A stretch of DNA of 61,243 bases, the filler included, from Chthonomonadaceae bacterium (GTDB lineage: Bacteria > Armatimonadota > Chthonomonadetes > Chthonomonadales > Chthonomonadaceae): NCBI GenBank assembly GCA_035650735.1. It is 4 parts of 4 records of this genome, joined end to end, with 100 filler letters (N's around TTAATTAATTAA, not from the genome) between each part and the next. Parts side by side here need not be neighbours in the genome. Positions count along the whole stretch, not along the records: positions 24,662 to 44,504 come from DASRGZ010000138.1; 3 more parts are not named here. One strand, given 5' to 3'. Below are positions 26,377 to 44,604 of the stretch, piece after piece. Under the pieces are notes generated by a model that was not told where the DNA came from, did not search any database, and was given only the letters and a program-made list of their open reading frames with translations. Made by a program: the position numbers and the translations under genes. Numbering within the stretch: the stretch's first letter is position 1; the number at the start of each line of letters is the position of its first letter.

Positions 26377-26384
26377 GGTGGGAA

Positions 26385-26430
26385 TAGCCCTCACCCCCGG
26401 CCCCTCTCCCGCAGCGCGGGAGAGGGGAGA
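26385..26430. repeat. REP-like palindrome
   Basis: CCCTCACCCCCGGCCCCTCTCCCGCAGCGCGGGAGAGGGG. Confidence 0.75.
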
Positions 26431-26477
26431 GGCGCTTTCGTGCGAGGGGATGCTCACGCAGGGAGGGCTGAGTTGGA

Positions 26478-27149
26478 ATGCTTACGTTCGTCGCAACCCC
26501 CATCGGCAACCTCAACGACATCACCCTGCGGGCGCTGGAGACGCTGCGCGAGGCCGATGTCGTCGCCAGCGAGGATACCCGCAAAACCGGCCTGCTCCTC
26601 AAGCACTTCGGCATCCAGAAGCCGCAAATCGCCTACCATGAATATAACGAGGAGCGGGCCGGCGAGCGCATTATGGCGCTGTTGGCGGAGGATAAGAAGG
26701 TGGCGGTCGTGACCAACGCGGGCACGCCAGGAATCTCCGACCCCGGCTATAGGCTGGTTCGGAAGGCCATTGACGCCGATATTCCGGTGACGATGGCTCC
26801 CGGCCCAACTGGATTAGTCATGGCGCTGGTGCTCTCCGGCCTGCCCGTTCACAGCTTTACGTTTCGGGGGTTTCCGCCGCGCAAGCCCGGCCCGCGCCGC
26901 CGCTTCCTGGAGGTGGATAAGGACTCGCCCCACACGCTCATCTTCTATGAAAGCCCCTACCGGCTGGAAGGGTTCTTTGCGGACGCCCTGGCGGTCTATG
27001 GCGACCGACAGGCGGCGCTTGCCAATGAGCTAACCAAGAGGTTCGAGAAGGTCGAGCGCGGCACGCTCTCCGCGCTGGCTCAGGGCCTCTCCGGAACGAA
27101 GCCCCGAGGAGAGTACGTCATCGTGATTGCGGGAGCGGGCGATGCGTAA
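26478..27149 (+). CDS. rsmI: 16S rRNA C1402 2'-O-methyltransferase
   Basis: [43 protein letters not shown]. Confidence 0.95.
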
Positions 27150-28239: not shown

Positions 28240-29045
28240 GCGATTCTTCTCAACTGCTGGAGCAACTGCTTGCGGAAATAGGCGCCGGCCCGAAGTACCG
28301 GCACGTCAGCGCCGATCTGGTACGTCGTATCGGGCAGCGCGAGCTGGCGGCGCGGCGCAGCTTCAATGAGGCCGTGCACGCGACCCGGAACAAGCTCCAC
28401 CAGATCGCGGGCGCCTATCTCGGCGGCAGGATGCGCTATACGAAATGGCTCGATCTGCTGGCTGCCGCCGCGCCCAATGGCGATCCGGCGCTGCGGGATG
28501 CCTGCGCGCAGATCATGGCCTATCACGCTTCGACGCGCGAACGCCTGTCCATTCTCGCAGAGTTCTACCGGACGACGCTCGCGCAGATAGCTCCCATTTG
28601 CTCCGTGCTGGATGTCGCCTGTGGCCTCAACCCGCTGGCGCTGCCCTGGATGGGGCTGGATCGAGACGTCGCCTACTATGCCTGCGACATCTACGCGGAC
28701 ATGATGGACTTCCTCAACGGCTTCTTCGCCATCGCAGGCGTGCCCGGCTGCGCCGAGGTCTGCGACGTGGTCGGCGGGCCGCCCGCGCACTCGGTAGACC
28801 TGGCGCTGGCGCTCAAAACGCTGCCGCCGCTGGAGCAGGTGGAGAAAGCGGCGGGATTGAACCTGCTGAAAGCCCTCCGCGCGCGTCATATCCTGGTCTC
28901 CTTCCCCACCCATAGCCTCGGCGGACGCGATAAGCAGATGCGGATTAACTACGAACAGCGCTTTCGGGAGATGGTGCGCGCCGAACGCTGGACCTTGCAG
29001 CGGTTTGAGTTTGCCACCGAGCTTTGCTTTCTCCTTTCGACCTGA
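28236..29045 (+). CDS. 16S rRNA (guanine(1405)-N7)-methyltransferase, ArmA/Rmt/Sgm (FmrO) family
   Basis: KYR, KLHQIAGAY, HASTRERL, LDVACGLNPLA, LKTLP, VSFPTHSLGGR, C-terminal EL. Confidence 0.9.
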   Translation: MSDSSQLLEQLLAEIGAGPKYRHVSADLVRRIGQRELAARRSFNEAVHATRNKLHQIAGAYLGGRMRYTKWLDLLAAAAPNGDPALRDACAQIMAYHASTRERLSILAEFYRTTLAQIAPICSVLDVACGLNPLALPWMGLDRDVAYYACDIYADMMDFLNGFFAIAGVPGCAEVCDVVGGPPAHSVDLALALKTLPPLEQVEKAAGLNLLKALRARHILVSFPTHSLGGRDKQMRINYEQRFREMVRAERWTLQRFEFATELCFLLST

Positions 29046-29063
29046 TACCTCTTTCAGATTTGC

Positions 29064-29092
29064 TTGCTGGACTCCCCTTTACGATGTATAAT
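29064..29092 (+). promoter_or_regulatory. Sigma70-type promoter for the NfeD-flotillin pair
   Basis: TTGCTG-N17-TATAAT; downstream inverted repeat TGCCT-N7-AGGCA. Confidence 0.55.
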
Positions 29093-29185
29093 GGATCGAG
29101 AGATAATTGTTGACAACTGCCTATTAAAAAGGCATTCCATCCGTGCAAGATAGGGCAGTCGCACGGCAGCTAGAGCGGAAGGCAG

Positions 29186-29893
29186 GTGGCGAAGATGCTC
29201 TTTTTTCTGGCTCTTATGGTAGCGGGCTTCACCGGGCTGATCTTTCTGGCGCTGCCGGGAATGCTGCATCATGGCATGGGGTCGCAACATGCCGGGCATA
29301 CCGGACATGATGGAGGTCACATCGGACACGGCGGTCATGCGGGACATACGATTGGCAGTCACCATGCCGGGCATCTTGCTCACTCGGGCCAGCACGCAGG
29401 CGGACATCCTACTGGGCATGCCGCGCATGGGCACGGCGCCCACGCCGAGGAGACGGCAGGAACGCCGGTAAAGAGCTTCGGCGGACTAGTACCCTCCCCG
29501 CGCGTTATCTTTACCTGGCTGGCGCTATACGGTGCGTTCGGCTATGGGCTGGTCGGGGGCGCGCACTGGACGCCGCTGCTGGCCGGGCTTGCGGCTCTGG
29601 TTCCCACCTGGCTGGTGGATAGACTGCTGGTCACGCCGCTGTGGAACCTGCTGTTCCAGTTCCAGGGCAAGCCGGATTCGCCTCTGGAGAGCCTGGTAAT
29701 GGGCGATGCGGAGGCGGTGACGCCCTTCACGAACGGGCGCGGCATGGTCAGCGTCGTGCGGGATGGGAGACTGGTGCAGTTTTGCGCGCATCTGGCCGAC
29801 GCGCAGGCCGGAATGCGCGTCCGTGTCGGTGATAAGCTGCGTATCGAAGAGGTGGATGCCGAGAACGAGCGCCTTACCGTCACCTTGCGTTAG
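29186..29893 (+). CDS. NfeD/YuaF-like membrane protein with His/Gly-rich loop
   Basis: TM helix, 19-His tract, two more TM helices, C-terminal OB-fold-like region; upstream of an SPFH gene. Confidence 0.7.
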   Translation: MAKMLFFLALMVAGFTGLIFLALPGMLHHGMGSQHAGHTGHDGGHIGHGGHAGHTIGSHHAGHLAHSGQHAGGHPTGHAAHGHGAHAEETAGTPVKSFGGLVPSPRVIFTWLALYGAFGYGLVGGAHWTPLLAGLAALVPTWLVDRLLVTPLWNLLFQFQGKPDSPLESLVMGDAEAVTPFTNGRGMVSVVRDGRLVQFCAHLADAQAGMRVRVGDKLRIEEVDAENERLTVTLR

Positions 29894-29971
29894 TATTGTG
29901 GGGCCGGACACGGCGCGTTCGGCGGAGGCAGCGCGGCAACCTCAGCATCCGCGCAGAAAGAGAGACCAAGA

Positions 29972-31345
29972 GTGGAAACATTGCTGATTGTGGCCGGGGC
30001 CGTCGTAGGCGTCCTGATCCTGACGTCGATCATCATTACGACGTTCCTGCGCAGCGTGGATGCGGGCGAGATTTTGCTGGTAAGCTGGTTCGGTCGGGGG
30101 CGAGAGCGGCAGATTTTTCGCGGGCCGTGCAAAGCCTTTGTCGTGCCGCTCTTTACCCAGACGCGCGTGATCCCGGCCCAGGCGATCAACGTGGACATTG
30201 ACATCACCGACCAGACCGCCGACGTGGACGCCAACGGCAGGCCCGCGCCGGTCAAGGTCACGGTCAAGGCGTCGGCCATCGTCAGCGTCGGAGAGGACGA
30301 TGCGATGGTCAACACCGCCGCCAACAAGTTCTTCTCCAAGCCGCCGATGGAGCAGCTTGGCACGCTGACGGACGTGCTCTCGTCCGCCGGACGACGCGCC
30401 ATCAATCTGCTCAAGCACGATCAGTTGTTCAACGCGCGCACGGGAGGGCCGACCGGCACGGCGCTGGCGGTGCCCGCGCCGGGCACGGCGACCGACCTGG
30501 TGCGCCAGCAGGACGATGATGAGCTCGCCGTCATCATCAAGGAAGCCTGTTCTCGCGAATTGCAAGACCTGGGCCTCTCGTTCAACAGCCTCAACATCAA
30601 GGCCGTCTTGAGCGAGGTCGCGGAGGCCAGGCGGCGCGAGTCGGCAGCCCGCGCGAAGGCTAGCGCCGATGTCGTGCAGGCCCAGGAGGAGCAGCGCGCC
30701 CGCATCGCCCAACTGGAGGCGCAGCAGAAGATCAACGATCAGGAGCGCGCCCTGAACATGCAGATCGCCGCCAACGGTGCGGCCATCGCCCGCGCGGAGG
30801 CGGAGCGGCAGGCCGCCGTGCGCGAACAGCGTGAGGCCGAACTAACCGCTAGCCAGATCACTCAGGCCCGTGCCGATGCCGAGCAGAACGTCATCCAGCA
30901 GGAGGCGGAAGGTCGCGCGCAGGCCGCGCGTATCCGTCTGACCGCCGAGGCCGAAGCGGATGCCATCCGCAAGAAGGCGCAAGCCCTGGCCGAGGCGGGA
31001 CAGGCCTATCTCGACCTGCGCCGCCTGGAACTGGCGCCAGAGCTAACGCATGAGGTCGCGCTGGCGCTTGCCCGAGGCCAGTTCGTTAACTTCGGCTCCG
31101 GGGGTGCGGGCGGACAGAGCGCTGCCGCTTCCGGCTCCGACGATGTGATGCGCGTCGTCCAGACCTTGATGGCCGCTCAGATCATCACCAACAACGGACG
31201 CAGCGATGGCTTGCGGCGTGAGACTGGGGAGGCTATCGCAGCCGTTCCGCCGTCCTCCGAGCAGGCGGTCGTCACGCCTGCGCCCGGACAATCGGGGCAG
31301 TCGGCAGCACCGTCGCAACAAAGATCGGCCTTCCGAAAAAGCTGA
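29972..31345 (+). CDS. SPFH/flotillin family protein
   Basis: N-terminal TM, SPFH-like domain, Ala/Glu-rich coiled coil with AEAEA repeats. Confidence 0.8.
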   Translation: METLLIVAGAVVGVLILTSIIITTFLRSVDAGEILLVSWFGRGRERQIFRGPCKAFVVPLFTQTRVIPAQAINVDIDITDQTADVDANGRPAPVKVTVKASAIVSVGEDDAMVNTAANKFFSKPPMEQLGTLTDVLSSAGRRAINLLKHDQLFNARTGGPTGTALAVPAPGTATDLVRQQDDDELAVIIKEACSRELQDLGLSFNSLNIKAVLSEVAEARRRESAARAKASADVVQAQEEQRARIAQLEAQQKINDQERALNMQIAANGAAIARAEAERQAAVREQREAELTASQITQARADAEQNVIQQEAEGRAQAARIRLTAEAEADAIRKKAQALAEAGQAYLDLRRLELAPELTHEVALALARGQFVNFGSGGAGGQSAAASGSDDVMRVVQTLMAAQIITNNGRSDGLRRETGEAIAAVPPSSEQAVVTPAPGQSGQSAAPSQQRSAFRKS

Positions 31346-31400
31346 TCGGAGCGTGCGGCCATGGCCGGGCCATGAAAATACCTTAGGGTCTACTGCCGTT

Positions 31401-31529
31401 GCCGGGCACGGAAAGTACCCGGCTAGGGGGCCTAACGGCCAAGCGTCCTGGCGGACGCCCTGCCAAGCCAGGTTTTCCGTCCGAAGGACGGTCGGCGGCG
31501 TAGCCGCCCCGGCACTTTCCGTGCCCGGC
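31401..31529. repeat. MITE/REPIN-like element with 16-bp terminal inverted repeats
   Basis: GCCGGGCACGGAAAGT ... ACTTTCCGTGCCCGGC; related copies at 37279-37414 and 57646-57881. Confidence 0.8.
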
Positions 31530-31592
31530 TGGATTGACCAGACCGGTCCTTTATGGCCCGGCAAAACCCAATTGGTAAGATTCGTAAATAAG

Positions 31593-32675
31593 ATGCAACC
31601 TCTGATTGGAATAACGACTCAAGAACTAGAAGCTGTCGCTCAGGAACTGGGCCAGCCGGCCTATCGCGGGCGGCAGCTTGCCTCCTGGATTTATAAGCGA
31701 GGCGCGACCTCCTTCGACCAGATGACCGACTTGCCGCACGACCTGCGCGCCCGCCTGGCCGAATCCTATACGGTCGGCACGTTGAAGATAGCGCATAAAG
31801 ATGCGGCGGCGGATGGAACCATCAAATATCTGGTCGAATTGCCGGATGGCGAGAAGGTCGAAAGCGTCTACCTGCCCTATCCCGACCGCGTCTCTGTCTG
31901 CCTGTCTACCCAGGTCGGCTGCCCTGCCGGGTGCACCTTCTGCGCGACGGGACAGGGCGGGCTGGCGCGGAACCTGACGGCGGGCGAGATCGTCGGGCAG
32001 TTTCTGCTCATGCAATCCGGGAGCGCGCGGCGCATCACCCATGCGGTCTACATGGGCATGGGCGAACCGCTCTGGAACTATGAGGCTGTCGTGAAGAGCC
32101 TGCGCCTGCTGGGCAAGGAAGTCGGCGTGTCGCTGCGTAATCTCACCGTCTCCACGGTGGGCGTCGTTCCGGGCATCCGCGCGCTGGCCCAGGAAAACCT
32201 GCCCATCACGCTGGCGCTGTCGCTGCACGCCCCTGACGACGCCTTGCGCGCCCAACTCATCCCGACGGCCCGCAAGTGGAAGCTGGATGAGATCCTGGAC
32301 GCCTGCAAGGAGTACGCAAGCAGCACGCACCGCAATCTGACGTTTGAGTATCTGCTGATCGGCGGCATCAACGACAGCCCGGAGCAGGCCCGCGCCCTGG
32401 CCGCGCTGCTCAAAGCGAAGCAGTTGCCCGGCAACGTCAACCTGATACCGTTCAACTACGTGGAGACCCCGCAGGGCTTCCGCCGCCCGTCGCGGGAAAG
32501 CATTCTCCGCTTCCGCGAGGAGCTGGAGAAGGCGGGCCGGGTCACCACGCAGCGCATGACGCGCGGCCACGCCATCTCCGCCGCCTGCGGGCAGTTGCGG
32601 CGCAGCCTGACGCCGGGGGCCACGGCGCGTCCGGCCTGCCTGCGGGGAACGATGCTGGCCCTGACTCCGCGCTGA
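31593..32675 (+). CDS. rlmN: 23S rRNA A2503 C2-methyltransferase (radical SAM)
   Basis: CLSTQVGCPAGCTFCATG, MGMGEP, SLHAP, VNLIPFN, AACGQL. Confidence 0.95.
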   Translation: MQPLIGITTQELEAVAQELGQPAYRGRQLASWIYKRGATSFDQMTDLPHDLRARLAESYTVGTLKIAHKDAAADGTIKYLVELPDGEKVESVYLPYPDRVSVCLSTQVGCPAGCTFCATGQGGLARNLTAGEIVGQFLLMQSGSARRITHAVYMGMGEPLWNYEAVVKSLRLLGKEVGVSLRNLTVSTVGVVPGIRALAQENLPITLALSLHAPDDALRAQLIPTARKWKLDEILDACKEYASSTHRNLTFEYLLIGGINDSPEQARALAALLKAKQLPGNVNLIPFNYVETPQGFRRPSRESILRFREELEKAGRVTTQRMTRGHAISAACGQLRRSLTPGATARPACLRGTMLALTPR

Positions 32676-32763
32676 CCGCGCTGAGAGGCCGCGCCGGCAG
32701 CCATCGCGCAGGTAAGCAATTCCGACGACGTAGAGCCAGACCTTGCATGAGGTATATCCTTAC

Positions 32764-33357
32764 ATGGCCTCTGCCATAAATAGGGGGATCGCTTGCAGCC
32801 TGGCGCTCGCGCTGCTGCTTGTGGGCGTTGGGTGCGGCGGAGCGCGCGTCAAAGCGGCCAAAAAGCCGGAACCGACCGGCGCGGCGGAGACGCAGCCCAG
32901 CCTGCCCGGAGGCATTACCGGGCAGGAGTGGCATATTCTGTGGTCCACCCGCAATCCTACTCAGCCGAACGGCAAGCCGCTGCCCGTCGTGGACGCCCAT
33001 GCCCGCACCGGCGAGCTCATGGACCGCGCCGAGGGCGATACGATCCTGCTGCATGACGTCCATGCCCGGCTCTATCGCAACGGCAAGCCCGCCGCCATTA
33101 TAGATGCTCCGCAGGTCACGGCGAACCAGCGGGACCGTATTCTCGTCGGGACGGGCGGCGTTACCCTGATCTCTCTAGCCGACCCGCCGGATACGACGGT
33201 GAAAGCCAATAAGATCACCTGGAATACGCGCACGGATGAGATCGTCGGGGTCGGCAATACGCATATCGTTCGGCGATTGCGGGACGGAACGCCCTTTGAG
33301 CAGATCGGCGGGCGCGTTACCTATGATAGCAAGGCGAAAGATTTCAATATTGAGTGA
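32764..33357 (+). CDS. lptC: LptC-like LPS export protein, possible lipoprotein
   Basis: Hydrophobic N-terminus ending VGVGC, beta-rich body, first gene of the lpt block. Confidence 0.55.
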   Translation: MASAINRGIACSLALALLLVGVGCGGARVKAAKKPEPTGAAETQPSLPGGITGQEWHILWSTRNPTQPNGKPLPVVDAHARTGELMDRAEGDTILLHDVHARLYRNGKPAAIIDAPQVTANQRDRILVGTGGVTLISLADPPDTTVKANKITWNTRTDEIVGVGNTHIVRRLRDGTPFEQIGGRVTYDSKAKDFNIE

Positions 33358-33477
33358 TAGGGCTGCGGATAGCGGTCCCATAAGACCGATCTCCCCAGGC
33401 AGGTTTTCCCAGGATGGCAGAGCGCCTGAGGGGATAGGCTTTAAGCGCATGGAGACCTTCAGGACAAAGGAAGTCGA

Positions 33478-35244
33478 ATGAACCGTTTCGAGGACAGGAG
33501 AATCCTCGCCGCAATGCTGGTCGGCCTCGGCCTGCTGGGGCTGCTAGCCGGCCGGCCAGCGCGCGCTACCCAGCCGCCCGCCGCCGTACCGAAATCTGAG
33601 CGGCAGCCGGCCCGCCCCGCTCCCCAGAGCGGCCCGAAGATATCGCGCTTCGGCAAGGACGTTACCATTACCGGGTACACCCAACTCAAGGCCAAAGCCG
33701 ATGGGTCCGGCGTCACCATCCTCGGCCCCAACACCCTCGTCGTCCTTCAGGATCCGCGCAGCCGCTCCACCCTCCGCCTGCACGCCGATACCCTCACCTC
33801 TCGAAAGGAAGGTACGGAGCTGCTGGGCCGGATTGATTTGAGCGGGAACGTGCGCTACACCATCACGCAGCGGACGGAATCCGGGACCCAACGCACGGTG
33901 GAGGGCACGGCGGGCCATGCCTTCTATCGGCGCGCGACCAACCGCTTAGAGCTGACCGACGGCGTGCGGGCCGCTCTCCTCGATCCCGAGCGTCTCAGCG
34001 GGCCGGGCTCGCTGTTGGCGGGCCGCGTCACGGTCGAGATCGGGCCGGGGCCGTATCGCTATATCATTGAGGGCAGCAACAACGATATCCGCTTTACGCC
34101 GCGTGAAAATGCCGGAAGCGCGGGCAGGCCGCAGCCTGGCGAAGTCCATATCTACGGCTACGAGTCCGGCGAGTTTGTGGTCGGGCAGAGGGCGCAGTTC
34201 TCCGGCGCGGGCACGACGGTAGATTTCGACAATCCGACGGATAAGACGCATACCCGCTTCCAGGCCAATCGCATCGCCGCCGCCTTCACGCCCGACCACG
34301 CCGCCTTGAGCCGCGCGGAGGCCGAAGGGGGCGTCCGCTATGCGATTGAGCGGCCCGCGCCGAGCGGACAGGGCCAGCAGGCTGTGAAGGGCACCGGTGC
34401 GCGCGTTACCTACGACGCTCAAAGCTCCCAGGTCGTGTTGCAGGGGAGGGTGCGCGCCGACATCACGGACTCGGAGGCGCTGCTCAGGCCGGCGCGCATG
34501 GTGGCGGATCGGGTGGTCGCCTTCCTGGGAACGGCGGAACAGCCCACGCACTATAAAATGACGGGCGAGGCGAATCAGACGCGCCTGCGCTTCACGCCGC
34601 GCCCGCCCGCCGGAGCGGAAACGGTTGGCAGCGAAGGGCAGCCCCGCAACTTTCCTATCGGTGAGGTGGAAGTTGTCGGCTTCACCGTCGGGGAGTACTA
34701 TCCAGGTCAGAGCCTATCGCTGCACGGGCCAGCAACGACCTTCGGCACCTTCGACCGGGCCACGCGTACGCGCACGCAGTTCCAGGCCAGCCACATCCTC
34801 GCGGCCTTTGCCCGGAATCGCAACGTCACTAACGTCGAGGCGACAGGAAATGTCCGCTTTTATGTCGAACAACCTTCTACCGCCACCGAAGCTTCCGGAG
34901 GCTTGAATAAGAATCTGGAATCGGTGACCGGCACGGCCCAGAAAGTCGTCTTTACGAATACGCCGGAGGCGAAGAAGGTCGTGGTGCAGGGCAAGTTTGT
35001 CGCGCACGTACGCGACCCGGAAAACCTGCAAGGGCCGGGACTCATCCGGGGCGAGGCAGGCGGCACCCTCGCCGAGGCCGATACGCTGACGCTGGATCTG
35101 TCCGCGCGGCCCTATGAGTTCGATATCTCCAGCCCCAAGCAGACGGCCTCGATTGAGTTCCAGCCGCGCGAACGAAGCCAGGCGCAGGGCACGCCAGCAG
35201 GCAAGGCGCCCGCCTCCTCGAAGCCGGGAACAAAGAAACCATAA
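33478..35244 (+). CDS. LptA/OstA-like periplasmic protein with three tandem repeats
   Basis: Signal peptide; three ~180-190 aa units, each with GxVRY/F...V.GT...D.E.L..P...F.PR; directly upstream of lptB. Confidence 0.65.
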   Translation: MNRFEDRRILAAMLVGLGLLGLLAGRPARATQPPAAVPKSERQPARPAPQSGPKISRFGKDVTITGYTQLKAKADGSGVTILGPNTLVVLQDPRSRSTLRLHADTLTSRKEGTELLGRIDLSGNVRYTITQRTESGTQRTVEGTAGHAFYRRATNRLELTDGVRAALLDPERLSGPGSLLAGRVTVEIGPGPYRYIIEGSNNDIRFTPRENAGSAGRPQPGEVHIYGYESGEFVVGQRAQFSGAGTTVDFDNPTDKTHTRFQANRIAAAFTPDHAALSRAEAEGGVRYAIERPAPSGQGQQAVKGTGARVTYDAQSSQVVLQGRVRADITDSEALLRPARMVADRVVAFLGTAEQPTHYKMTGEANQTRLRFTPRPPAGAETVGSEGQPRNFPIGEVEVVGFTVGEYYPGQSLSLHGPATTFGTFDRATRTRTQFQASHILAAFARNRNVTNVEATGNVRFYVEQPSTATEASGGLNKNLESVTGTAQKVVFTNTPEAKKVVVQGKFVAHVRDPENLQGPGLIRGEAGGTLAEADTLTLDLSARPYEFDISSPKQTASIEFQPRERSQAQGTPAGKAPASSKPGTKKP

Positions 35245-35277
35245 GACTTAACCCTGGGGAGATCAGGAAGCGCACGA

Positions 35278-36129
35278 TTGGAAATTCGCACGGAAAATCT
35301 GGTTAAAATCTACCGCGGGCGTCGGGTCGTCAACAATATCAGCCTGGAGATCCAGGAGGGCGAGGTCGTCGGGCTGCTGGGCCCCAACGGCGCGGGCAAG
35401 ACCACCACGTTCTACATGATCGTCGGGCTGGTCAAGCCCAACAGTGGGCAGGTGCTGCTCGACGGGCAGGACATCACGCGCCGCCCGATGTACAAGCGGG
35501 CGCGGGCCGGCATCGGCTACCTGCCGCAGGAGGCGTCCGTCTTCCGCAATCTGACGGTGTGGGAGAACCTGTATCTGGTTCTGCAAATGCAGCCGCTCTC
35601 CCAGGCCGAGCGCAAGGCGCGCGCCGAGGCGCTGCTGGAAGACCTGCATATCACCCACCTGCGCAATCACTACGGCAAAACGCTCTCCGGCGGCGAGCGG
35701 CGGCGCGTCGAGATCGCCCGCGCCCTGGCCGCCTCGCCACGCTTCATCCTGTTGGATGAGCCCTTTACCGGCGTAGACCCCAAAGCCATCGAAGACATCG
35801 AGACGATCATCTACCGCCTGTCCAAGCGGGACAAAATCGGCATCCTGATCACCGACCATAACGTGGAGGCGATGCTGCGGATCACGGAGCGCGCCTACAT
35901 CATTGCCGATGGGGAGAAGCGAGTCTCCGGTCCCTCCCGTCAACTGCTGCACGACCCGGAGGCGCGCGCGGCCTACTTCGGCGAGCGCTACGGCCAGAGG
36001 CGCGACCTGGCGCGCGAGGCCGCCGAGGCGGAATTGCAGGAGAGCCTGGGCGGCGATTGGAGCGCGGAGACGCCGGAAGAGAATGGCGACGAGGATGAGG
36101 GAGGAAGCGGCAACGATGCGTCTGATTGA
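35278..36129 (+). CDS. lptB: LPS export ABC transporter ATPase
   Basis: GLLGPNGAGKTTTFYMIVGL, GYLPQEASVFR, LSGGERRRVEIARAL, LITDHNV. Confidence 0.96.
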   Translation: MEIRTENLVKIYRGRRVVNNISLEIQEGEVVGLLGPNGAGKTTTFYMIVGLVKPNSGQVLLDGQDITRRPMYKRARAGIGYLPQEASVFRNLTVWENLYLVLQMQPLSQAERKARAEALLEDLHITHLRNHYGKTLSGGERRRVEIARALAASPRFILLDEPFTGVDPKAIEDIETIIYRLSKRDKIGILITDHNVEAMLRITERAYIIADGEKRVSGPSRQLLHDPEARAAYFGERYGQRRDLAREAAEAELQESLGGDWSAETPEENGDEDEGGSGNDASD

Positions 36130-37258
36130 TAAGCTGGTGTTCATAGACCTCATCGGCCCGTTCCTCAATGGGATGGTAATGTTCCTGACGCTGCTGTTCG
36201 CCGCCACCTACCTGTTCCCGGCAACGGAGCTGCTCGTGCGCGGCATTCCGCTGCTCACCGTCATTCGGCTGACCCTCCTGCTGCTGCCGAGCATCCTGAC
36301 CCAGACCTTTCCGATGGCGATGCTGCTGGCGGGCCTGCTGGGCCTGGGGCGCATCTCCGCCGACCACGAGGCGGTGGCGATCTTTGCGGCGGGCATCAGC
36401 TTTCCCCGCGTCGTGCGGATCGTGCTGATTACCGGCACCCTCGTCAGCCTGATCGCCTTTCTCTGGAACGATAACGTGGTGCCGCCGGCCAGCGCTGCCG
36501 CGCTCAGAATTCGGCAGGAAGCGGAAAAGCATATCCAGAATCTAGATAAGCCGCTCAGCTATACCGTCGAGGGCAAACAAGGAGTCGAGGAATTTGTCAA
36601 AATAGATGGCGGCTTCGATGCGCAGACTCGCACCCTTCGCCGCGTCTCTATCGTTAAATACAGCCAGGATCCGCAACGGCAGGGGCAGCCGGAAGTCCTC
36701 ATCTACTGCAGCCGGGCCATCGCCAACGATGAGAAGGGCCTGGACTGGACTTACTACGACGGCTACCTGCTCCCCATTACGCCCGGCAACGACCGCAATA
36801 GCATCGATAATTCCCTGGTTATTAACTTCAAAGAGCTGAGGGCGCTGCCCCGCGGGGCCTCCATCGGCAAGCGATGGGATGAGGTCCTCAGCGTTCAGCG
36901 TGACGACCCCAACAGCAAGAGCTTTAGCCAGCTGCGCCAGGAGATCGAGGCCGAGCGCCAGAAGGGCATGGATACCGGCGGCAAAGAAGTGGATCTCTAC
37001 GGCAAGATCTCGCTGCCGCTGGCCAGCCTCATCTTCGGGATGGTGGGCGCGGCGCTGGGCCTCAACACGCAGCGCGGCGGCGGCAAGACCGTCGGCTTCG
37101 GCATGGCGATCTTTATCGTCTTTCTCTACTGGATCTTCTATCACTCTATGTTCGTGCTCGGCAAGGGAGGCAGCCTGCCTCCGATGCTGGCGAGCTTCCT
37201 GCCCGATATTGTGGGGGCGGTTGTCGGCGTTATCCTGACCGTGCGCGCATCCCGTTAA
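36116..37258 (+). CDS. LptF/LptG family permease
   Basis: MRLIDK...GPF start, 3 TM + periplasmic domain + 3 TM, overlaps lptB. Confidence 0.9.
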   Translation: MRLIDKLVFIDLIGPFLNGMVMFLTLLFAATYLFPATELLVRGIPLLTVIRLTLLLLPSILTQTFPMAMLLAGLLGLGRISADHEAVAIFAAGISFPRVVRIVLITGTLVSLIAFLWNDNVVPPASAAALRIRQEAEKHIQNLDKPLSYTVEGKQGVEEFVKIDGGFDAQTRTLRRVSIVKYSQDPQRQGQPEVLIYCSRAIANDEKGLDWTYYDGYLLPITPGNDRNSIDNSLVINFKELRALPRGASIGKRWDEVLSVQRDDPNSKSFSQLRQEIEAERQKGMDTGGKEVDLYGKISLPLASLIFGMVGAALGLNTQRGGGKTVGFGMAIFIVFLYWIFYHSMFVLGKGGSLPPMLASFLPDIVGAVVGVILTVRASR

Positions 37259-37278
37259 TCTCTCGCGACCGATAGGGA

Positions 37279-37414
37279 GCCGGGCACTGAAAGTACCCGG
37301 CTCTAGGGCCTACGGCCAAGCGCCCTGGCGGACGCACAGCCAAGCCAGGTGTTCCGTCCGGGAGGACGGTTGGCGGCGCAGCCGCCCTCTAGACGGGTAC
37401 TTTCCGTGCCCGGC
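37279..37414. repeat. MITE/REPIN-like element, same family as 31401-31529
   Basis: GCCGGGCACTGAAAGTACCCG ... CGGGTACTTTCCGTGCCCGGC. Confidence 0.8.
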
Positions 37415-37485
37415 ACGGATCGGAGGTTTTCAATGCCCGGCTAGGACCTTTGTGCGAGGTTCCAGCGGACAAGGGGTATCCTGCC

Positions 37486-39072
37486 ATGTTATGGACACTG
37501 CTCGCCCTGGCGTCTCTGGTGGCGCTGGGCGGGTTTATCGCCTATTATGGGGATCTGCAGGGGAGGCGCTGGGGCAAAAAACGGGTCTCCTGGTTCGGCC
37601 TGCGTCCTAAACATACCGCGATCCTGATCACCAGCCTGACCGGCGCGTTCATCTCGCTGCTAAGCATCGTCACGCTGCTTGCCATCAACCAGCCGCTGCG
37701 CGAAGCCATCCTTAACGGCGAAACGGCCATCCGCGAGAACAAGCGGCTCAACTCGCAGTTAGTTATCGAGCGTATTCAGTCGGAAAACAGCTTAAACGAA
37801 TCCCGCTCCCGGGAACAGATCGCCCGCGCCAACTATGAAAATGCCTCCCGCGCCGCCGCCGATAAGCAAAGACAATTAGAGCGACTCAATGCCAAGCTGG
37901 CCGATCTCAACACGCACATCCAGAAGCTGCTGGCGCAATATAGTGCCCTGCAGCAGCAGTATTTCCGTGAGCAGCGTGCGGTCCTGGCCGAACAAAATAA
38001 GAACCGTAAGCTGCACGCCGACAATCAGGAATTGACACAGCTCAATGAGACCGCCGGAAAGATCAACGAGGCCATCGGCAAGCAAAATGTGGACCTGGCC
38101 CGGCAAAAAATCGAGCTGAGCAAGAACAACCAGAAACTCAAGCAGGCCAACGCCAGGCTCACCGAGGGCAATAAGACCCTGCTGACCGTCCGCGATCAGC
38201 AGATTGAGAAGAACGCAGAGCTTTCCAGACAAAACGCGGCGCTGGCCGAGGCGAACAAGCAACTGCTTGGCAGCAACCGGGATCTGGAGCAGCAGGCCAG
38301 AGACCTGCAAGCCCGGATCGCTCAGCTCAATCAAGAATACGCCTCGCTCTCCGGCGAACGGCTCAATATCGCGCGCAGCTATCTGGCGCTGCGGCAGGGC
38401 AAGTTCAGCCTGCGGGCCGGGGCGGAATTGGCGCGGCGGACCTTTGATGCCCACCTGCGCCCGGAGGCCGTGCGCGCCCGATTGAGCGATCTGCTGGATG
38501 AGGCAAGCGCAATGGCGATCACGCATGGAGCCGTGCGCGCCGACAATGGCCGCGCGGTGCGAATCGTTACCAAGCGCTTCCTTCTGCTGGCGGGCCAGAT
38601 GGACGCCGATGAGCGGGCCAGCGTGGATGCCCTGGTGGATCGCCTTACCGCCAGCGATACGCCGGTCGTCGTGGTGGCCAACGCCGTCAACAACAGCGTG
38701 GAGGGCGAGCAAGTGCTCATCGAGCTAACCCCGTTCGCCGTGCGCCGCGTTTTCGGCAAGGGTGAGCGCGTCGCTTCCTGCGTGATCAACGCCCGCCAGC
38801 CCACCGACCGGATCTTCGACTCCATCGTTCAGTTCCTCAACCAGGATGTGCGCGATGCGGCGCTCAAGGCCGGCACCATCCCGCAGACCGATCCCGAGAC
38901 GGGCCAGCGCCGGGTCGGCAGTATCGAGACGAGCGACCTGCTCAAGCTGACGGAGCGCATCCGCCGCATGAACGGGCAGGTGCTGCTGACCGCAATCGCC
39001 AAAGAAGAGACCACTTCCGCCGACCCGCTGCGCCTGGACTTCAAGCTCTCGCGCCCGGCAGAGGGGTCCTGA
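37486..39072 (+). CDS. DUF3084 family membrane-anchored coiled-coil protein
   Basis: GGFIAYYGD...GKKRVSWFGLRPKHTA...ITSLTG, then a long coiled coil. Confidence 0.88.
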   Translation: MLWTLLALASLVALGGFIAYYGDLQGRRWGKKRVSWFGLRPKHTAILITSLTGAFISLLSIVTLLAINQPLREAILNGETAIRENKRLNSQLVIERIQSENSLNESRSREQIARANYENASRAAADKQRQLERLNAKLADLNTHIQKLLAQYSALQQQYFREQRAVLAEQNKNRKLHADNQELTQLNETAGKINEAIGKQNVDLARQKIELSKNNQKLKQANARLTEGNKTLLTVRDQQIEKNAELSRQNAALAEANKQLLGSNRDLEQQARDLQARIAQLNQEYASLSGERLNIARSYLALRQGKFSLRAGAELARRTFDAHLRPEAVRARLSDLLDEASAMAITHGAVRADNGRAVRIVTKRFLLLAGQMDADERASVDALVDRLTASDTPVVVVANAVNNSVEGEQVLIELTPFAVRRVFGKGERVASCVINARQPTDRIFDSIVQFLNQDVRDAALKAGTIPQTDPETGQRRVGSIETSDLLKLTERIRRMNGQVLLTAIAKEETTSADPLRLDFKLSRPAEGS

Positions 39073-39208
39073 TACCAACTCCAGTGGAATTCTTAGTTGA
39101 TCCACGCTGGCCAGCCTCGCACGCAACTGCTAGCCAGTGGAATCCTTGGTGTCTCGCTACCTCAAACAGCGGCGCATACGGGAACGACTCCACCGGAGGG
39201 GATATAAA

Positions 39209-39682
39209 ATGCCGGTGAACGAACCTCACTTTTCGGAGGTCGCTCTGACGCCGTCGGCAGCCGGGGAGGCGCGCGTCATCCTTGCCGTGGATCCGGGCAG
39301 CGCCAAATGCGGCGTTGCCGTCGTGCGCTCGGATGGGGTTGTGCTGTTTCGGGCTATCATGACGGTAGATAGCCTGGTGGAGGAGGCGCGCGCCCTGGTC
39401 GCCCGTTTCCGGCCCCTGGCGCTGCTGGTGGGCGGGGGAACCGGCTCCGGGACGCTGCTGCGCGCCCTGGAGGCCGCCCGGTTACCGGTGCCGGTGCGCC
39501 GTGTGGATGAGGCGCATACCTCGGAGGCGGCGCGCGCCCGCTTTGTGGCGGAGAATCCGGCGCGCGGCTGGCAGCGGCTGTTGCCCCGCAGCCTGCGCAC
39601 GCCCTGGTGCCCCTACGACGACTATGTCGCCATCATTCTCGCCGAGCGCTATTGGAACGCGGAAGCTGGCGGACTCCCCTGA
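39209..39682 (+). CDS. YqgF/RuvX-like RNase H-fold nuclease
   Basis: LAVDPGSAKCGVAV, GGGTGS, VDEAHTSEAAR, DDYVAIILAERY. Confidence 0.85.
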   Translation: MPVNEPHFSEVALTPSAAGEARVILAVDPGSAKCGVAVVRSDGVVLFRAIMTVDSLVEEARALVARFRPLALLVGGGTGSGTLLRALEAARLPVPVRRVDEAHTSEAARARFVAENPARGWQRLLPRSLRTPWCPYDDYVAIILAERYWNAEAGGLP

Positions 39683-39753
39683 ACTGCCCGCTGTGCCTGC
39701 ATCCCGCAAAGCGCTTTTGTTGCTGCTCTTGCCGAGGGAATCCCAATAGAGGA

Positions 39754-39781
39754 GGAACCTTTTGTCGCTTGCTATCGTCTA
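39754..39781 (+). promoter_or_regulatory. ECF-sigma-type promoter
   Basis: GGAACC-N16-CGTCTA. Confidence 0.6.
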
Positions 39782-39787
39782 CCGCAT

Positions 39788-40100
39788 GGATAGCGTGATG
39801 AGGCGTCTCGCGGAAAAATCAATAAAACGAGACGGCCGGGTGTCACTGCTTTCCCTGCCGTCTCGGAGCATTTACGGCCGAATGTGGCAGCGGGCTGAAT
39901 CTTACGTCATGGCAAGAGAGCCCGCCGCTCGCGCGTAAATGCAACGATGAGACGGCAGAAGGCCGTTATGGGTTCCCCTGTTATCACAGGCAGTACAATG
40001 TGAGGGATGAGGACGCAGCGCCGCCCCGAGCCAATGCAAGAGTTCTGTGCAAGTGATGAGGCCGCAGAAACCAGCTTCTGGTGTTTCTGCGGCCTTTGTT
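39788..40100 (+). ncRNA. Candidate ~310-nt structured non-coding RNA
   Basis: Lies between the ECF-type promoter and a terminator; long nested stems at 39855-39958; no ORF with an RBS. Confidence 0.5.
40059..40100 (+). terminator. Intrinsic terminator
   Basis: 13-bp stem AGGCCGCAGAAAC / GTTTCTGCGGCCT followed by TTGTT. Confidence 0.7.
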
Positions 40101-40132
40101 CTGCCAGGAAGGCTCTTTTGCGCCTACTTAAT

Positions 40133-40660
40133 AGACCTCACCCCCGTCCCCTCTCCTTCTAAAGGAGAGGGGAGAGGACTTCACTCTCAGGTACTTCGGT
40201 TCTGCCTGATCTCCCCTCATCCCCGTCCCTTCTCCCTGCAAGGCAGAAGGGGGAAGAGAAGCCAACTCTGTCTCTCCCCTCCCCCAATTCTAGGGGAGGG
40301 GATAAAGGGGTGGGGGCCGCTCCCCTCTGCCGCAGCGTGGATCGCAAGGCGGAGGCCCGAACCATGGCAGGGCCGACCCTTGCAGTAGGGGTTGGGGGTG
40401 AGGGCCACAACCATCTCAAGTTGGGTCACCCCCTTCCCTCGTAGGGTCGCAAGGCGGAGGGCTGTGGCAAGGCGGAGGCAGGGGCCCTAACCCTGCCGAC
40501 GGCCAGTATTCGCAACCCTTCCACCTTAGATGTTGATGTCGTAAGGCGGAGGCAGGGGCCGTAACCCTGCCGACCCTGGCAGTCCATTGCAGGCCCGACC
40601 CTGGCAGTGGTGCGAGCGTGCGCAGCACCGATCCTAGCAGTGGGGGACGGGGGGTTAGGT
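40133..40660. repeat. Large composite repeat cluster
   Basis: Several CCCCTCTCC/GGAGAGGGG palindromes plus GCAAGGCGGAGG and CCGACCCT(G/T/A)GCAGT units; 40540-40660 nearly identical to 45027-45148. Confidence 0.85.
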
Positions 40661-42022
40661 CAGCCAGTGGAGCAGCAGCGAGGCCAGCCAGAGGAACACG
40701 CCGAAGCCGATCACATCCTGAAAGGCGGTCTCAAACGGCCCGGCGGTGGTCGCCGGGTCGAAGCCGAGGCGCTTGGAGATCATCGGAATGATGGTTCCCA
40801 TGAAGCCTGCCGTCAGCATCGAGCAGGTCAGCGCGCCGCCAATCACCAGCCCGAACGTCAGGCGATGCGACCAGATCGCCCCGGTCACGCCCAGCAGGAT
40901 GCCGCAGGCAAACGCCATCAGCAGCGAGGTCGCCAGCTCCTTGGCCACCGGACGCCACCAGGAGGTCAGGCTGACGTGGCCCGTATCCAATCCGCGCACG
41001 ACGATGGCGGCAGCTTGCAGCCCCACGTTGCCGGAGATAGCCGAGATCACCGGCATGAACGAGGCCAGCAGCATGACCTGCTTGAGCACGTTGTCGAAGT
41101 GGGCGATGATCAGCCCGGCCATCAGCTCGATCAGCATGGTGCCCAGAAGCCAGGGCAGGCGCAGGCGGGCCACCTGCGCCGGAGTGCGCCGCTCCATCTC
41201 CTCGGCGTCCGAGCCCACCAGGCGCAGGTAATCCTCGTTGAACTCCTCCACGAGAACATCAATGACATCATCCACCGTGACGATCCCCTGCATGCGGCCC
41301 GCCGCGTCCACCACCGGCACCGCCAGCAGGTCGTAGCGGGAGATGAGCCGCGCCACCTCCTGCTGGTCGGTCTCCGGCGAGACCGCGATGAGGTCGGTGA
41401 TCATGAACTCCCGGATCGGCCGATTCAGGGGCGCCACCAGCACGTCGCGCAGGGAGGAGACGCCAACCAGCCGCTCGCCGCCGTTGAGCACATAGACGAT
41501 GTTGACGGTTTCCAGGACATCGGCGTTGCGGCGCAGATAGTCGAGCGTCTGGGCGGCGGTGGTGTCCGGCGAGACGACGGCAAACTTGTCGGTCATCAGG
41601 CGCCCCGCCGTCTGCTCGGGATACGAGAGAAGCTCGCGCACCTCCTCCGCGTCGGCGCGGGGCAGAGCGGCCAGCAGCGGCCCGGCCTCCGCCGAACCAA
41701 GCTCCGAGACGACCTCCGCCGCATCGTCCATCGGCAAGATGTCCAGCAGCGAGACCATGCGGTCGTGCGGCGAGTTCTCCGTCAGGTAGCGGGCGGTTTC
41801 CGTGGAGACCTCATCCAGCACCTCGGCGGCCCGCTCGGCATCTAAATGCGCGAAGACGATCAGCGCTTCCGGCAGCGTCAGCTCCTCCAGGATGAAGGCG
41901 ATGTCGGAGGGATGCAGCTCCTGAAGAAGCGCCGTCAGGGTGGCCGCCAGGGCCGGCCCTGTCTCGCGGTCCAGTGCCTGCCGCACGCGCTCGATGATCG
42001 GTTCCGTCGTGATGACTCGCAT
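40655..42022 (-). CDS. mgtE: Magnesium transporter
   Basis: N-domain, YPEQTAGRLMT, CBS pair, GIVTVDDVID, RLPWL, GNVGLQ, DPATTAGPF. Confidence 0.95.
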   Translation of the reverse strand: MRVITTEPIIERVRQALDRETGPALAATLTALLQELHPSDIAFILEELTLPEALIVFAHLDAERAAEVLDEVSTETARYLTENSPHDRMVSLLDILPMDDAAEVVSELGSAEAGPLLAALPRADAEEVRELLSYPEQTAGRLMTDKFAVVSPDTTAAQTLDYLRRNADVLETVNIVYVLNGGERLVGVSSLRDVLVAPLNRPIREFMITDLIAVSPETDQQEVARLISRYDLLAVPVVDAAGRMQGIVTVDDVIDVLVEEFNEDYLRLVGSDAEEMERRTPAQVARLRLPWLLGTMLIELMAGLIIAHFDNVLKQVMLLASFMPVISAISGNVGLQAAAIVVRGLDTGHVSLTSWWRPVAKELATSLLMAFACGILLGVTGAIWSHRLTFGLVIGGALTCSMLTAGFMGTIIPMISKRLGFDPATTAGPFETAFQDVIGFGVFLWLASLLLHWLT

Positions 42023-42231
42023 GGTCGTGTCCTTTCCCTCCCCTCCGCAGACGCCCGACTCCGGGCGCGGCGCACAACCGGGCACGTCCGGGGCGTTCGC
42101 GGGGCGTGCGGATGAAAGCGTGATCTACTTTTAGGCCGGAAAGGAACGAAGGAGGAGGAAAAGAAGGAGGGGACCTCCCGCTTCCACCGTGGGCCGGGGC
42201 GGCCTGGCGGAAGCAGAGGCGAGGAGTCGCC

Positions 42232-42297
42232 TTAGCGTCCGAGGCGCAGGCCGGGCGGCCTATCGTTCCTGCCGCGTTCGTGACTGTCGTCTGACAT
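42232..42297 (-). CDS. Candidate 21-aa leader peptide upstream of mgtE (MSDDSHERGRNDRPPGLRLGR)
   Basis: AAGGATGGA upstream of ATG; lies between the promoter and mgtE; followed by a hairpin and a pyrimidine tract. Confidence 0.45.
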   Translation of the reverse strand: MSDDSHERGRNDRPPGLRLGR

Positions 42298-42352
42298 GGA
42301 CTCTATCCATCCTTGCGCTGCCGGGGTAAGATTACAAACGCAGCGCCGTGTC

Positions 42353-42382
42353 ATTATATCCCCCTTCTCTGCGCTCTGTCAA
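42353..42382 (-). promoter_or_regulatory. Consensus sigma70 promoter for mgtE, giving a ~325-nt leader
   Basis: Minus strand TTGACA-N18-TATAAT. Confidence 0.75.
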
Positions 42383-42611
42383 CCCGGACAGCGGTACTTT
42401 GCGCGCTTTTTCTCGGTTGGCTGCGCGCGCCTTTTTCCTGACGCGCCGGTTGGCAACTTTGTTCGCCAAAATCAGGGATTCGGCCAGAGCGCAAACATAC
42501 CAACGACGAATTCGATACTCCAGCACTCAGCCGGGATGGACAGCCGGCCCAAAATCCGTTACAATAGAGCGGCCCGACATACGGGGCTATTTCCCTTTTC
42601 TGGTGGCACGC

Positions 42612-43619
42612 ATGACCGGACCGTCCCGAACGCTGCGCGAACTGCCCACCCTCCTTCTGCTGCTGGTCGTGGGCGCGCTGATGGCCGCGCCCATTCCCGA
42701 TCTGCATCTGCCGGGCCGGCTGGGCGCCTTCCTGGCGTCCTGGCACAATATCTCCACGGCCTTTCGTTCGCCCGGCAACCTAACCACCCTAGGGCAAAAC
42801 GCGGCGTTCATCGGCATCATGGCCTGCGGCGAGGGCCTGGTCATCCTCAGCGGTGGCCTGGATCTGTCGGTCGGCTCTATCCTGGCGCTGGCTAGTTGTC
42901 TGACCGCAATGGCGCTGGCCGCCAACTGGGCCTGGCCACTGGCAGCGCTGGCCGGGCTGGCGGCGGGCGCACTGGCCGGAGCCTTCAACGGCGCGTTCAT
43001 CACCTATCGCCGCCAGCCACCCATCCTGACCACGCTCGCCACGCTGCTGCTGTTCCGCTACGGCGTCAGCATCCTGTCCCATGCCCGCAACTACGGCCCC
43101 TTCCCGGCAGAGTTCAACCGCATCGGCGCTGGCTGGACGCCCGCCGTCCTGTTCGTCCTAGTCACGGCGCTGTTTGTGGTGGCAATGCTGCGGACGCCCT
43201 TCGGGCGCTGGGCCATCGCCGTGGGGGGCAGCGAACTGGCGGCGCGACTCTCGGGCGTGCCGGTAGACCGGGTGAAACGCGCAACCTATCTGCTTTCCGG
43301 GCTGTGCGCGGGCCTGGCCGGGCTGATCACCATGGCCTTCAACAACAACACGCAGTCCACCGCCGGGCAGGGCTACGAGTTGGACGTGATCGCCGCCTGC
43401 GTCGTCGGGGGCGTGCGGATCACGGGCGGCGACGGCACGGTCCTGGGCGCGGCGCTGGGCGCACTGCTGATCGCCCTGCTGCGCGACGCCCTGATCCTGA
43501 CGGGCCGTCCGGTAGAGCAGTACGGCCTGTTTACTGGCGCGGTCATCCTGGCGGCGGCGGCTCTGGAGCAGTGGCGCGTCTGGCGGCAGGAGCGGCGCCG
43601 ACAAGCCAGCGCCGGTTGA
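42612..43619 (+). CDS. RbsC-type sugar ABC transporter permease
   Basis: GGLDLSVGS, RTPFGR, AVGGSELAARLSG, YELDVIAACVVGG. Confidence 0.92.
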   Translation: MTGPSRTLRELPTLLLLLVVGALMAAPIPDLHLPGRLGAFLASWHNISTAFRSPGNLTTLGQNAAFIGIMACGEGLVILSGGLDLSVGSILALASCLTAMALAANWAWPLAALAGLAAGALAGAFNGAFITYRRQPPILTTLATLLLFRYGVSILSHARNYGPFPAEFNRIGAGWTPAVLFVLVTALFVVAMLRTPFGRWAIAVGGSELAARLSGVPVDRVKRATYLLSGLCAGLAGLITMAFNNNTQSTAGQGYELDVIAACVVGGVRITGGDGTVLGAALGALLIALLRDALILTGRPVEQYGLFTGAVILAAAALEQWRVWRQERRRQASAG

Positions 43620-43634
43620 TCCAGGGACGGAGCC

Positions 43635-44279
43635 ATGAACCCATTGACTCGGGGCCGCGTCGCGGCCATCATTCTGGCGGCGGGCAGGTCGCAGCGCATG
43701 GGGCGGCTCAAGCCGCTGCTGCCCTTCGGCGAGAAGCCCCTGCTGGCGCGGGTGATTGAAACGCTCGTTACGGCGCAAAATATCTCTCCGATTTTCGTTG
43801 TCACCGGCCATGCCGCGCAGGAAATCGCTGCCGCCGTCGGTGAATATAACATTCGGCTTGTACATAATGCGAACTATGCGGCGGGCGAAATGCTCTCTTC
43901 GGTGCAGGCGGGCGTGCGCGCGCTTCCTGCCGACTGCGCCGCCTTCTTTCTGGTGTTGGGCGATCAGCCGATGGTGCAGCCGGAAACCTTCCGGGCGCTG
44001 CTCTCTGCCTGGCGTCAGAGCGATGCGCCCCTGGTGGCGCCGACCTTTGAGGGCAGGCGCGGGCACCCTGTTCTGTTCTCCTCGCGTTGCGCTGCCGACA
44101 TCCTGGCCCTGCCCGTCGGAGAGACCTTGAAAACGGTCGTCGCCCGCTATGCCGCCCAACGGCGGGAAGTCCCCGTCTCCGACCCGGCCATCCTGGCCGA
44201 CGTGGACACCCCGGAGGACTACGCGCGCGCCCTGCGGCTCTGGCAAGACCAGACCGAACAATACGGCAGTGGGGAGTAG
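43635..44279 (+). CDS. MocA/MobA-like nucleotidyltransferase (molybdenum cofactor cytidylyltransferase-like)
   Basis: ILAAGRSQRMGRLK, LGDQP, GHPVLF, DVDTPEDY. Confidence 0.88.
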   Translation: MNPLTRGRVAAIILAAGRSQRMGRLKPLLPFGEKPLLARVIETLVTAQNISPIFVVTGHAAQEIAAAVGEYNIRLVHNANYAAGEMLSSVQAGVRALPADCAAFFLVLGDQPMVQPETFRALLSAWRQSDAPLVAPTFEGRRGHPVLFSSRCAADILALPVGETLKTVVARYAAQRREVPVSDPAILADVDTPEDYARALRLWQDQTEQYGSGE

Positions 44280-44351
44280 GATCAAAACCTTTGACCCTCT
44301 CAATCGGTGCTCTGCCCGCGAATGTGCCGCCAGGAGGAGGCCCGACCCTGA

Positions 44352-44504
44352 AGCGGCAGGCTAAACCCTGCCGCTCGGGGGCGCAAAGCGCCCGTCGCCC
44401 ACCTACGTGGGCGAAAAAGGTGTTTTGCCCGCGTAGGTGTCGCTAGGCAGAGCCGTGTCGCAAGGTGTCGCAAGGCGGAGGCAAGGGCCGTAACCTTGCC
44501 GACC
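44352..44504. repeat. Composite repeat at contig end
   Basis: GCGGCAGGCTAAACCCTGCCGC and GTCGCAAGGCGGAGGCAAGGGCCGTAACC units. Confidence 0.75.
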
Positions 44505-44604
44505 NNNNNNNNNNNNNNNNNNNNNNNNNNNNNNNNNNNNNNNNNNNNTTAATTAATTAANNNNNNNNNNNNNNNNNNNNNNNNNNNNNNNNNNNNNNNN
44601 NNNN
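44505..44604. other. Artificial contig linker
   Basis: N-run, TTAATTAATTAA, N-run. Confidence 0.98.

Follow-up and report, generated by a model that had tools for sequence, protein, structure and literature searches.

Convergent ECF-type promoter motifs at a single-copy, genus-restricted locus in Chthonomonadaceae suggest a nested pair of structured RNAs

An intergenic locus that carries a promoter motif, a strongly folding stretch and a terminator, in a genome of the Armatimonadota, raises the question of what RNA it encodes and on which strand. The window analyzed here comprises 61,243 nucleotides from a Chthonomonadaceae bacterium (Armatimonadota; assembly GCA_035650735.1; 6.5-Mb genome, here G000), joined by N runs at 24562-24661, 44505-44604 and 57546-57645 between contigs of a metagenome-assembled genome, and the locus lies on contig C138 (19,843 bp, window positions 24662-44504). 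The initial annotation read the + strand as a stand-alone structured RNA driven by an ECF-type promoter, and proposed a stress-regulated sRNA or a 6S-like RNA. The stand-alone, non-coding and structured character is borne out by conserved promoter boxes, the lack of a conserved ORF, and terminators. The sRNA reading holds as regards a stand-alone locus with an ECF-type promoter motif; the 6S-like part does not, and that reading had missed a second, convergent promoter motif as well as a terminator-like hairpin on the - strand. We consider it an evenly balanced call that this is a single-copy, genus-restricted non-coding RNA locus, transcribed by an ECF sigma factor from two convergent promoters into a predicted ~310-nt + RNA and a nested ~125-nt - sRNA (Table 1).

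Table 1. Features of the locus in window coordinates, with identical alignment columns between the window and the second species of the genus (G001).
Feature	Position	Strand	Description	Identity
Conserved module	39754-39976		223 bp; GGAAC-N17-CGTC motif at each border	
P+, ECF-type promoter	39754-39781	+	-35 GGAACC 39754-39759, 16-nt spacer, -10 CGTCTA 39776-39781	20/28 (-35 to -10)
Predicted + RNA	39788-40102	+	~310 nt; putative start 6-8 nt past the -10, end at the terminator U-run	
5' region, next 45 nt				14/46 (background level)
Block A, GGCGTCTCG	39802-39810	+	pairs with B to give the 5' hairpin of the + RNA	
Block B, CGAGACGGC	39828-39836	either	contains 8-mer GAGACGGC, the same as in block D; invariant in G001	
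Block C, CTGCCGTCTCG	39855-39865	either	partner of B (hairpin) or D (rod closure)	
B to C				27/41
Inner long hairpin	39868-39942	either	stem GCATTTACG/CGTAAATGC plus upper helices	
Apical 16-nt block, GTCATGGCAAGAGAGC	39906-39921	either	invariant in both species; putative seed	
Block D, GAGACGGCAG	39949-39958	either	rod closure with C in the + RNA; complement holds the P- -10	
D to right-hand box (P-)				24/33
P-, ECF-type motif	39976 down to 39950	-	-35 GGAACC 39976-39971, 16-nt spacer, -10 CGTCT 39954-39950	
Predicted nested - sRNA	39816-39943	-	~125 nt; inner hairpin plus B:C terminator; putative ends	
terminator-like element	39814-39865	-	hairpin B:C 39828-39865, then U-run TTTTATTGATTTTT 39827 down to 39814	
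+ intrinsic terminator	40059-40102	+	13-bp perfect stem (17 bp with bulge), then TTGTTCT	
Core alignment A3				91/158
Left flank				7/21 (random level)
Right flank				36/129 (random level)

Comparison with Rfam at gathering level returned no matches across the whole window, and a permissive search (E up to 10) of positions 39600-40700 gave sub-threshold noise, such as an eL15 leader at 15.6 vs 33.7 bits, and no 6S; the locus thus matches no family. Resemblance to 6S RNA (RF00013) is limited to a long, mostly double-stranded rod from a stand-alone gene: the 6S model does not match here, the genome's own 6S RNA is encoded elsewhere (G000:C204:2566-2752, 66.7 bits), and the rod lacks the large central bubble, its internal loops and bulges spanning at most 5 nt per side in the minimum free energy (MFE) structure. 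A riboswitch or attenuator leader was also rejected, since in both species what lies ahead on the + strand is a terminator and, past it, convergent genes; in the window the - strand points at the 3' end of a RuvX-like gene, and a - strand ORF lies downstream in G001 only.

ECF promoters in general follow the consensus GGAAC, about 16-17 nt, CGTC. The GGAACC-N16-CGTCTA promoter claimed for the + strand is present on direct reading of the sequence, and G001 retains its elements GGAGGAACCTTTT and TCGTCT without change (13 and 6 invariant bases) around a spacer that has diverged. Counts over G000 show that the motif is a genuine signal there: GGAACC-N16-CGTCT occurs at 27 sites vs 1 for a backwards control of the same composition, and 2 of the 27 are at this locus. 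The background of this strict motif is ~1 per 13 Mb of both strands. When the spacer of GGAACC-Nx-CGTCT is varied, lengths of 13-20 yield 3-11 matches each except N16, a sharp optimum, and the distance from GGAAC to CGTC is exactly 17 nt in all six instances compared (P+, P- and the sigma-gene promoter described below, in two species each). A looser motif, GGAAC-N16/17-CGTC, places 138 of 346 matches in the 22% non-coding-like fraction of the genome vs ~75 expected; these counts are inflated because a REP-like palindrome holds GGAAC-N16-CGTC by its own symmetry, and ~35 of the 138 sites, as counted from their listing, belong to this repeat. The palindrome (GGACGGAAC...GCGTCCG; window 37329-37359, - strand) has 38 matches genome-wide.

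Among the 49 sigma70_r2 genes of G000, the strict motif lies upstream of one, an ECF sigma gene on contig C15 (TIGR02937, 110 bits; L029:3289-4229, - strand), which encodes 259 aa and carries its own GGGAACC-N16-CGTCT with a ~134-nt leader. The G001 orthologue (L030) has 74% identity and keeps the promoter motif. Downstream of the C15 gene are two ORFs, one of 265 aa that matches no Pfam family and one of 583 aa. By motif likeness alone, the C15 protein is a candidate for the cognate sigma factor of the locus.

Two further matches to the motif (G000:C116:9166-9585 and G000:C139:34248-34667, both - strand) have no ORF within 400 nt. Past each of them, a stretch of ~200 nt leads to a similar terminator, and the two are alike in 150 of 257 aligned columns; they are unrelated to the locus studied here and are candidates for a second ECF-promoted sRNA family. 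At G000:C215:518-620 (+), a strong hairpin and six T come ~60 nt after GGAACC-N16-CGTCT, and a small zinc-ribbon-like ORF lies downstream; this is a candidate ECF-promoted sRNA of ~65 nt.

On the + strand, the RNA is predicted to fold as a rod with an MFE of -129.2 kcal/mol (z -3.2; 1 of 100 shuffles as good); the corresponding fold in G001 has a z of -6.4. All three rod helices that had been described were recovered, with 10 perfect base pairs at 39855-39864/39949-39958, 9 perfect base pairs at 39868-39876/39934-39942, and 9 of 10 at 39887-39896/39919-39928, as was the 13-bp terminator (40059-40071/40083-40095, perfect, then TTGTTCT). Segment 39828-39836 can pair with either 39855-39865 or 39802-39810. 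Forcing B:C on the + RNA costs 5.3-6.3 kcal/mol in the window and 3.4 kcal/mol in G001; at so few kcal/mol above the rod MFE, the two folds do compete, as had been claimed, with the rod favoured. The outer pairing TGTCACTGC/GCAGTACA is without support, since it lies partly inside a segment missing from the only homologue. Block A has a different sequence in G001 (GGTCTGCC), and it still pairs with that species' own B region. G001 too has a terminator hairpin in + orientation, unrelated to that of the window and with TTCGATTTT after it; no + strand gene lies ahead of that terminator. A consensus terminator scan of 39000-41000 reported none under its rule of 3-8 nt loops; it missed those of the locus because their loops are longer or branched.

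The earlier reading stopped at the + strand, and the - strand folds at least as well, with its own promoter motif and a terminator-like hairpin. The P- -10 lies inside the complement of block D. P+ and P- are strict motifs on opposite strands, 171 nt apart, and form the sole such pair within 400 nt in G000. A search of 42 family genomes for convergent pairs with a gap of 120-240 found two, which are the two RNA loci, and none in controls. With a wider gap, pairs occur in 12 of 401 phylum genomes vs 2 of 401 controls; to judge by their sequences, the 11 that are not in G000 seem coding or unrelated, and one (G041, another genus of the family) was examined further. That match (L039:1501-1700), in the gap that separates an ABC-F-like gene from a convergent ORF, has GGGAACAATAGACAGGAGAGTTCCGTCT, then ~150 AT-rich nt and a strong intrinsic terminator; it is an ECF-promoted sRNA candidate that is not homologous to the locus. 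At the position of P-, G001 has GGAACG-N16-CGTCT, a variant that is not enriched in G000 (10 matches vs 18 in the control), so P- in G001 may be weak.

The full-locus - strand fold reaches -134.3 kcal/mol (z -6.1). Over the predicted - sRNA stretch (129-140 nt), the window gives a clean two-hairpin fold of -64.3 kcal/mol (z -5.2), with the MFE structure making up 10% of the ensemble, and G001 gives -54.2 kcal/mol (z -4.0; 14% of the ensemble). The B:C hairpin of G001 is followed by CTTTTC, that is, four U only. A genome scan for complements of the invariant 16-mer with at most 2 mismatches yielded no convincing target site. An hfq gene is present in the genome.

The locus has one homologue. 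The 347-nt query matches only itself in G000 and is no repeat, and BLAST against 40 relatives returned one weak match, in G001. A covariance model of the core (R1) scores 172 bits in G000 and 166 bits in G001 and finds no others in 42 family genomes; in 151 genomes across the phylum there are none besides G000, with one 16-bit match at E 0.54. A three-block pattern scan of metagenome contigs yielded 13 loci: 2 identical to the window, 1 identical to G001, and 10 unrelated (at most 24.6 bits), among the last a coding-like tandem repeat (L023). A two-block scan of genome contigs returned the G001 contig only. As these scans recover only window and G001 copies, two distinct sequences exist. Another of the ten, on metagenome contig L024 (1028-1191), has GAGACGGC, GCCGTCTC and GAGACGGC at similar spacing and is otherwise unlike the locus (R1 13.9 bits, E 0.021); the shared 8-mers may be chance or mark a distant analogue.

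Identity between the two species is arranged in blocks. Similarity opens at the P+ -35 and closes at GTTCC(C), which is the P- -35, and the GAGACGGC/GCCGTCTC copies in B, C and D, together with the apical 16-nt block, are invariant across both. The gene context differs. The locus is flanked in the window by a RuvX-like ORF and mgtE (TIGR00400, 340 bits), and in G001 by a Pro/Ala-rich ORF and a ThuA gene; mgtE and the ThuA gene are convergent. The G001 RuvX-like gene adjoins a convergent ORF with ~17 nt between the stop codons, and the G000 ThuA orthologue is on contig C123, while R1 in G000 matches C138 only. The presence of the two copies in different neighbourhoods indicates that the module acts as an independent unit. 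A position downstream of yqgF, given earlier as the context of the RNA, is thus not conserved, and the yqgF call itself falls short of the family threshold: the ORF at 39209-39682 (+) scores 22.1 bits against Pfam RuvX (cut-off 29.2) and has no NCBIfam match. Upstream of this ORF is a 540-aa ORF with DUF3084. The rest of the 970-nt intergenic region, window 40130-40650, is densely filled with further families of short repeats, direct as well as inverted, among them hairpins rich in C or in G and GGCAAGGCGGAGGC units; given the ~17-nt gap in G001, either this block was inserted in one lineage or the other lineage lost it.

In the comparison of G000 and G001, B:C with the inner stem pairs in 35 of 36 cells with 4 pairs changed on both sides, and C:D with the inner stem pairs in 36 of 38 with 3 such changes; the inner stem itself has three pairs changed on both sides with pairing kept in G001. 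Slid controls show 21-47% pairing and zero double changes. The stems are thus retained through 3-4 double changes, but there are only two distinct sequences, which makes the power low, and 35 of 500 (B:C) and 64 of 500 (C:D) shuffles reach the observed values. At the base of the hairpin, a C-G pair is swapped to G-C, which keeps B:C and does not keep C:D.

Choice of strand is not decided by the predicted energies. For the inner hairpin, the window gives -34.8 (+) and -41.9 (-) and G001 gives -30.3 (+) and -27.7 (-), alignment folds of the two strands give -30.15 and -29.75 kcal/mol, and strand-specific wobble pairs are about equal in number by our own reading of the folds. Other features fit a transcribed + strand: P+ matches the strict motif in the two species alike, non-homologous + oriented terminators lie downstream in both, and the 5' hairpin with B is retained by differing sequences. 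These features, together with the rod as the MFE structure of the + RNA in both species and the non-enriched GGAACG at the P- -35 of G001, would also be expected if the + RNA alone were made and P- were a by-product, with D fixed for its pairing with C and GUUCCC for a role in the + RNA. We regard this as a real though minority possibility, since a different set of features fits a transcribed - strand: P- of G000 is a perfect GGAACC-N16-CGTCT despite the rarity of that motif by chance, similarity stops exactly at the P- -35, the C-G to G-C swap retains B:C and not C:D, and in both species the + strand has an A-run ahead of B, read as a U-run from the other strand, which together with the swap fits a terminator.

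The converse, that the ~125-nt - strand sRNA alone is functional and P+ is inconsequential or part of another unit, appears improbable. The - strand has a classical sRNA architecture with a well-defined ensemble and folds better in the window, and the 45 nt past P+ are unconserved; against this, P+ is a conserved island (with a diverged spacer between its invariant boxes) in two unrelated neighbourhoods, the G001 + terminator has no other + strand gene upstream, and P- is the weaker motif in G001. The locus could also act as DNA, whereby the three GCCGTCTC/GAGACGGC copies and two GGAAC boxes would bind or titrate ECF holoenzyme or a regulator, or form a cruciform, with any RNA incidental. The 8-mer is indeed invariant at three places where plain stems could covary, and the folds are strand-symmetric, but the inner stem and the B:C base have double changes that preserve pairing, a sign that a folded strand is under selection, terminators are oriented on both sides, and no regulated gene is adjacent in both species; we judge a DNA-level element quite improbable.

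A type I toxin-antitoxin system, or another small-protein gene with an antisense RNA, is very improbable. The layout is convergent and overlapping, and ORFs of 58 and 61 codons, one per species, begin in the promoter region; these start upstream of the inferred transcription start, however, and have neither a hydrophobic peptide nor a ribosome-binding site. Reading frames are unconserved, with B and the apex in different frames in the two species, the top same-strand ORF pair has a BLOSUM62 local score of 24, and a search for ORFs of at least 12 codons on both strands in both species found none conserved. A dispersed repeat (MITE or REP) or a chance palindrome without function is hardly credible: although the window and genome are repeat-rich, with several families next door at 40130-40650, there is one copy in G000 and one in G001, a copy number that refutes a repeat, and conservation is patchy and in blocks, in two neighbourhoods, with flanks at random level.

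The reading with two convergent promoters and nested RNAs suggests a possible mechanism. The C15 sigma factor, or a paralogue, once released under stress, would fire both promoters. The short - RNA has a predicted 5' stem-loop bearing the invariant 16-nt block, a terminator hairpin and a U-tail; it would likely pair with targets in trans, perhaps aided by Hfq. The long + RNA, its full complement, would likely antagonize the short RNA through duplex formation and through transcriptional interference or promoter occlusion, in the way SraC counters SdsR. In this scheme the 8-mer GCCGTCTC/GAGACGGC would have a triple role, as the P- -10 element, as part of the short-RNA terminator stem and as part of the rod-closing helix of the long RNA, and such a role would explain its invariance. 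That the whole forms a self-contained circuit, in which one sigma factor and promoters 171 bp apart serve a regulator and its perfect antisense antagonist with a triple-duty 8-mer, is a speculative proposal that we consider unlikely to hold in full. If true, it would provide a pulse or threshold filter on a stress response. The literature searched held no description of such a layout for ECF regulons.

The components of the proposal have precedents. RybB and MicL are stand-alone non-coding RNA genes with an ECF-type promoter and an intrinsic terminator. The available part of one account likewise describes MicA as a stand-alone, ECF (sigma-E) dependent sRNA gene with ECF-type -35 and -10 elements and an intrinsic terminator (PMC1851643). 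The locus shares with these three an ECF-type promoter, an intrinsic terminator and the lack of a conserved ORF; it differs in that they are 70-140 nt long, with a single-stranded seed and porin targets, whereas the + RNA here is long and rod-like and there is a second promoter motif on the opposite strand.

Nested pairs are known as well. In the portions of the published accounts available for SdsR (RyeB) and SraC (RyeA) of Escherichia coli and Salmonella, a ~100-nt sRNA under a stress sigma lies inside a ~250-nt intergenic sRNA gene on the opposite strand, with extensive complementarity and mutual control between the two (PMC3333887, PMC8687705). For the present locus the prediction is likewise of a shorter RNA (~125 nt) inside a longer one (~310 nt). 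The RNAs of the present locus are predicted, come from another phylum (Armatimonadota) and have no sequence or Rfam relation to that pair, which depends on sigma-S whereas the motifs here are of ECF type; in addition, the SraC promoter is, in the same excerpts, variable and its expression inverse to that of SdsR, whereas both promoters here have the same ECF-type motif. For Campylobacter jejuni, the part of the source available describes CJnc190 and CJnc180 as a cis-encoded sRNA pair in which one partner is an antagonist and the precursor is a long stem-loop cut by RNase III (PMC8687705). Their sequence and promoters are unrelated to the locus. As far as these partial accounts go, both systems share with it facing promoter motifs in one intergenic locus, the overlap here being predicted from promoter and terminator positions. 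On the favoured reading, the locus probably encodes a sense/antisense RNA pair resembling SdsR/SraC in an ECF regulon.

ECF-dependent sRNAs and nested sRNA pairs are thus both known already, and the locus is a new, unrelated case in Armatimonadota. Its practical weight is modest, given that it is confined to one genus known solely from metagenome-assembled genomes. Almost no regulatory RNAs have been described from the Armatimonadota, and the literature search turned up nothing published on sRNAs from Chthonomonas or related bacteria. If both strands use the same type of sigma factor, the locus would offer a compact natural case in which one signal governs both a regulator and the antagonist encoded in cis to it, useful for the study of stress thresholding. 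Together with the three or four other ORF-less sites that carry the ECF motif, it suggests that large ECF sets, such as the 49 sigma70_r2 genes of this genome, may control non-coding RNAs besides proteins.
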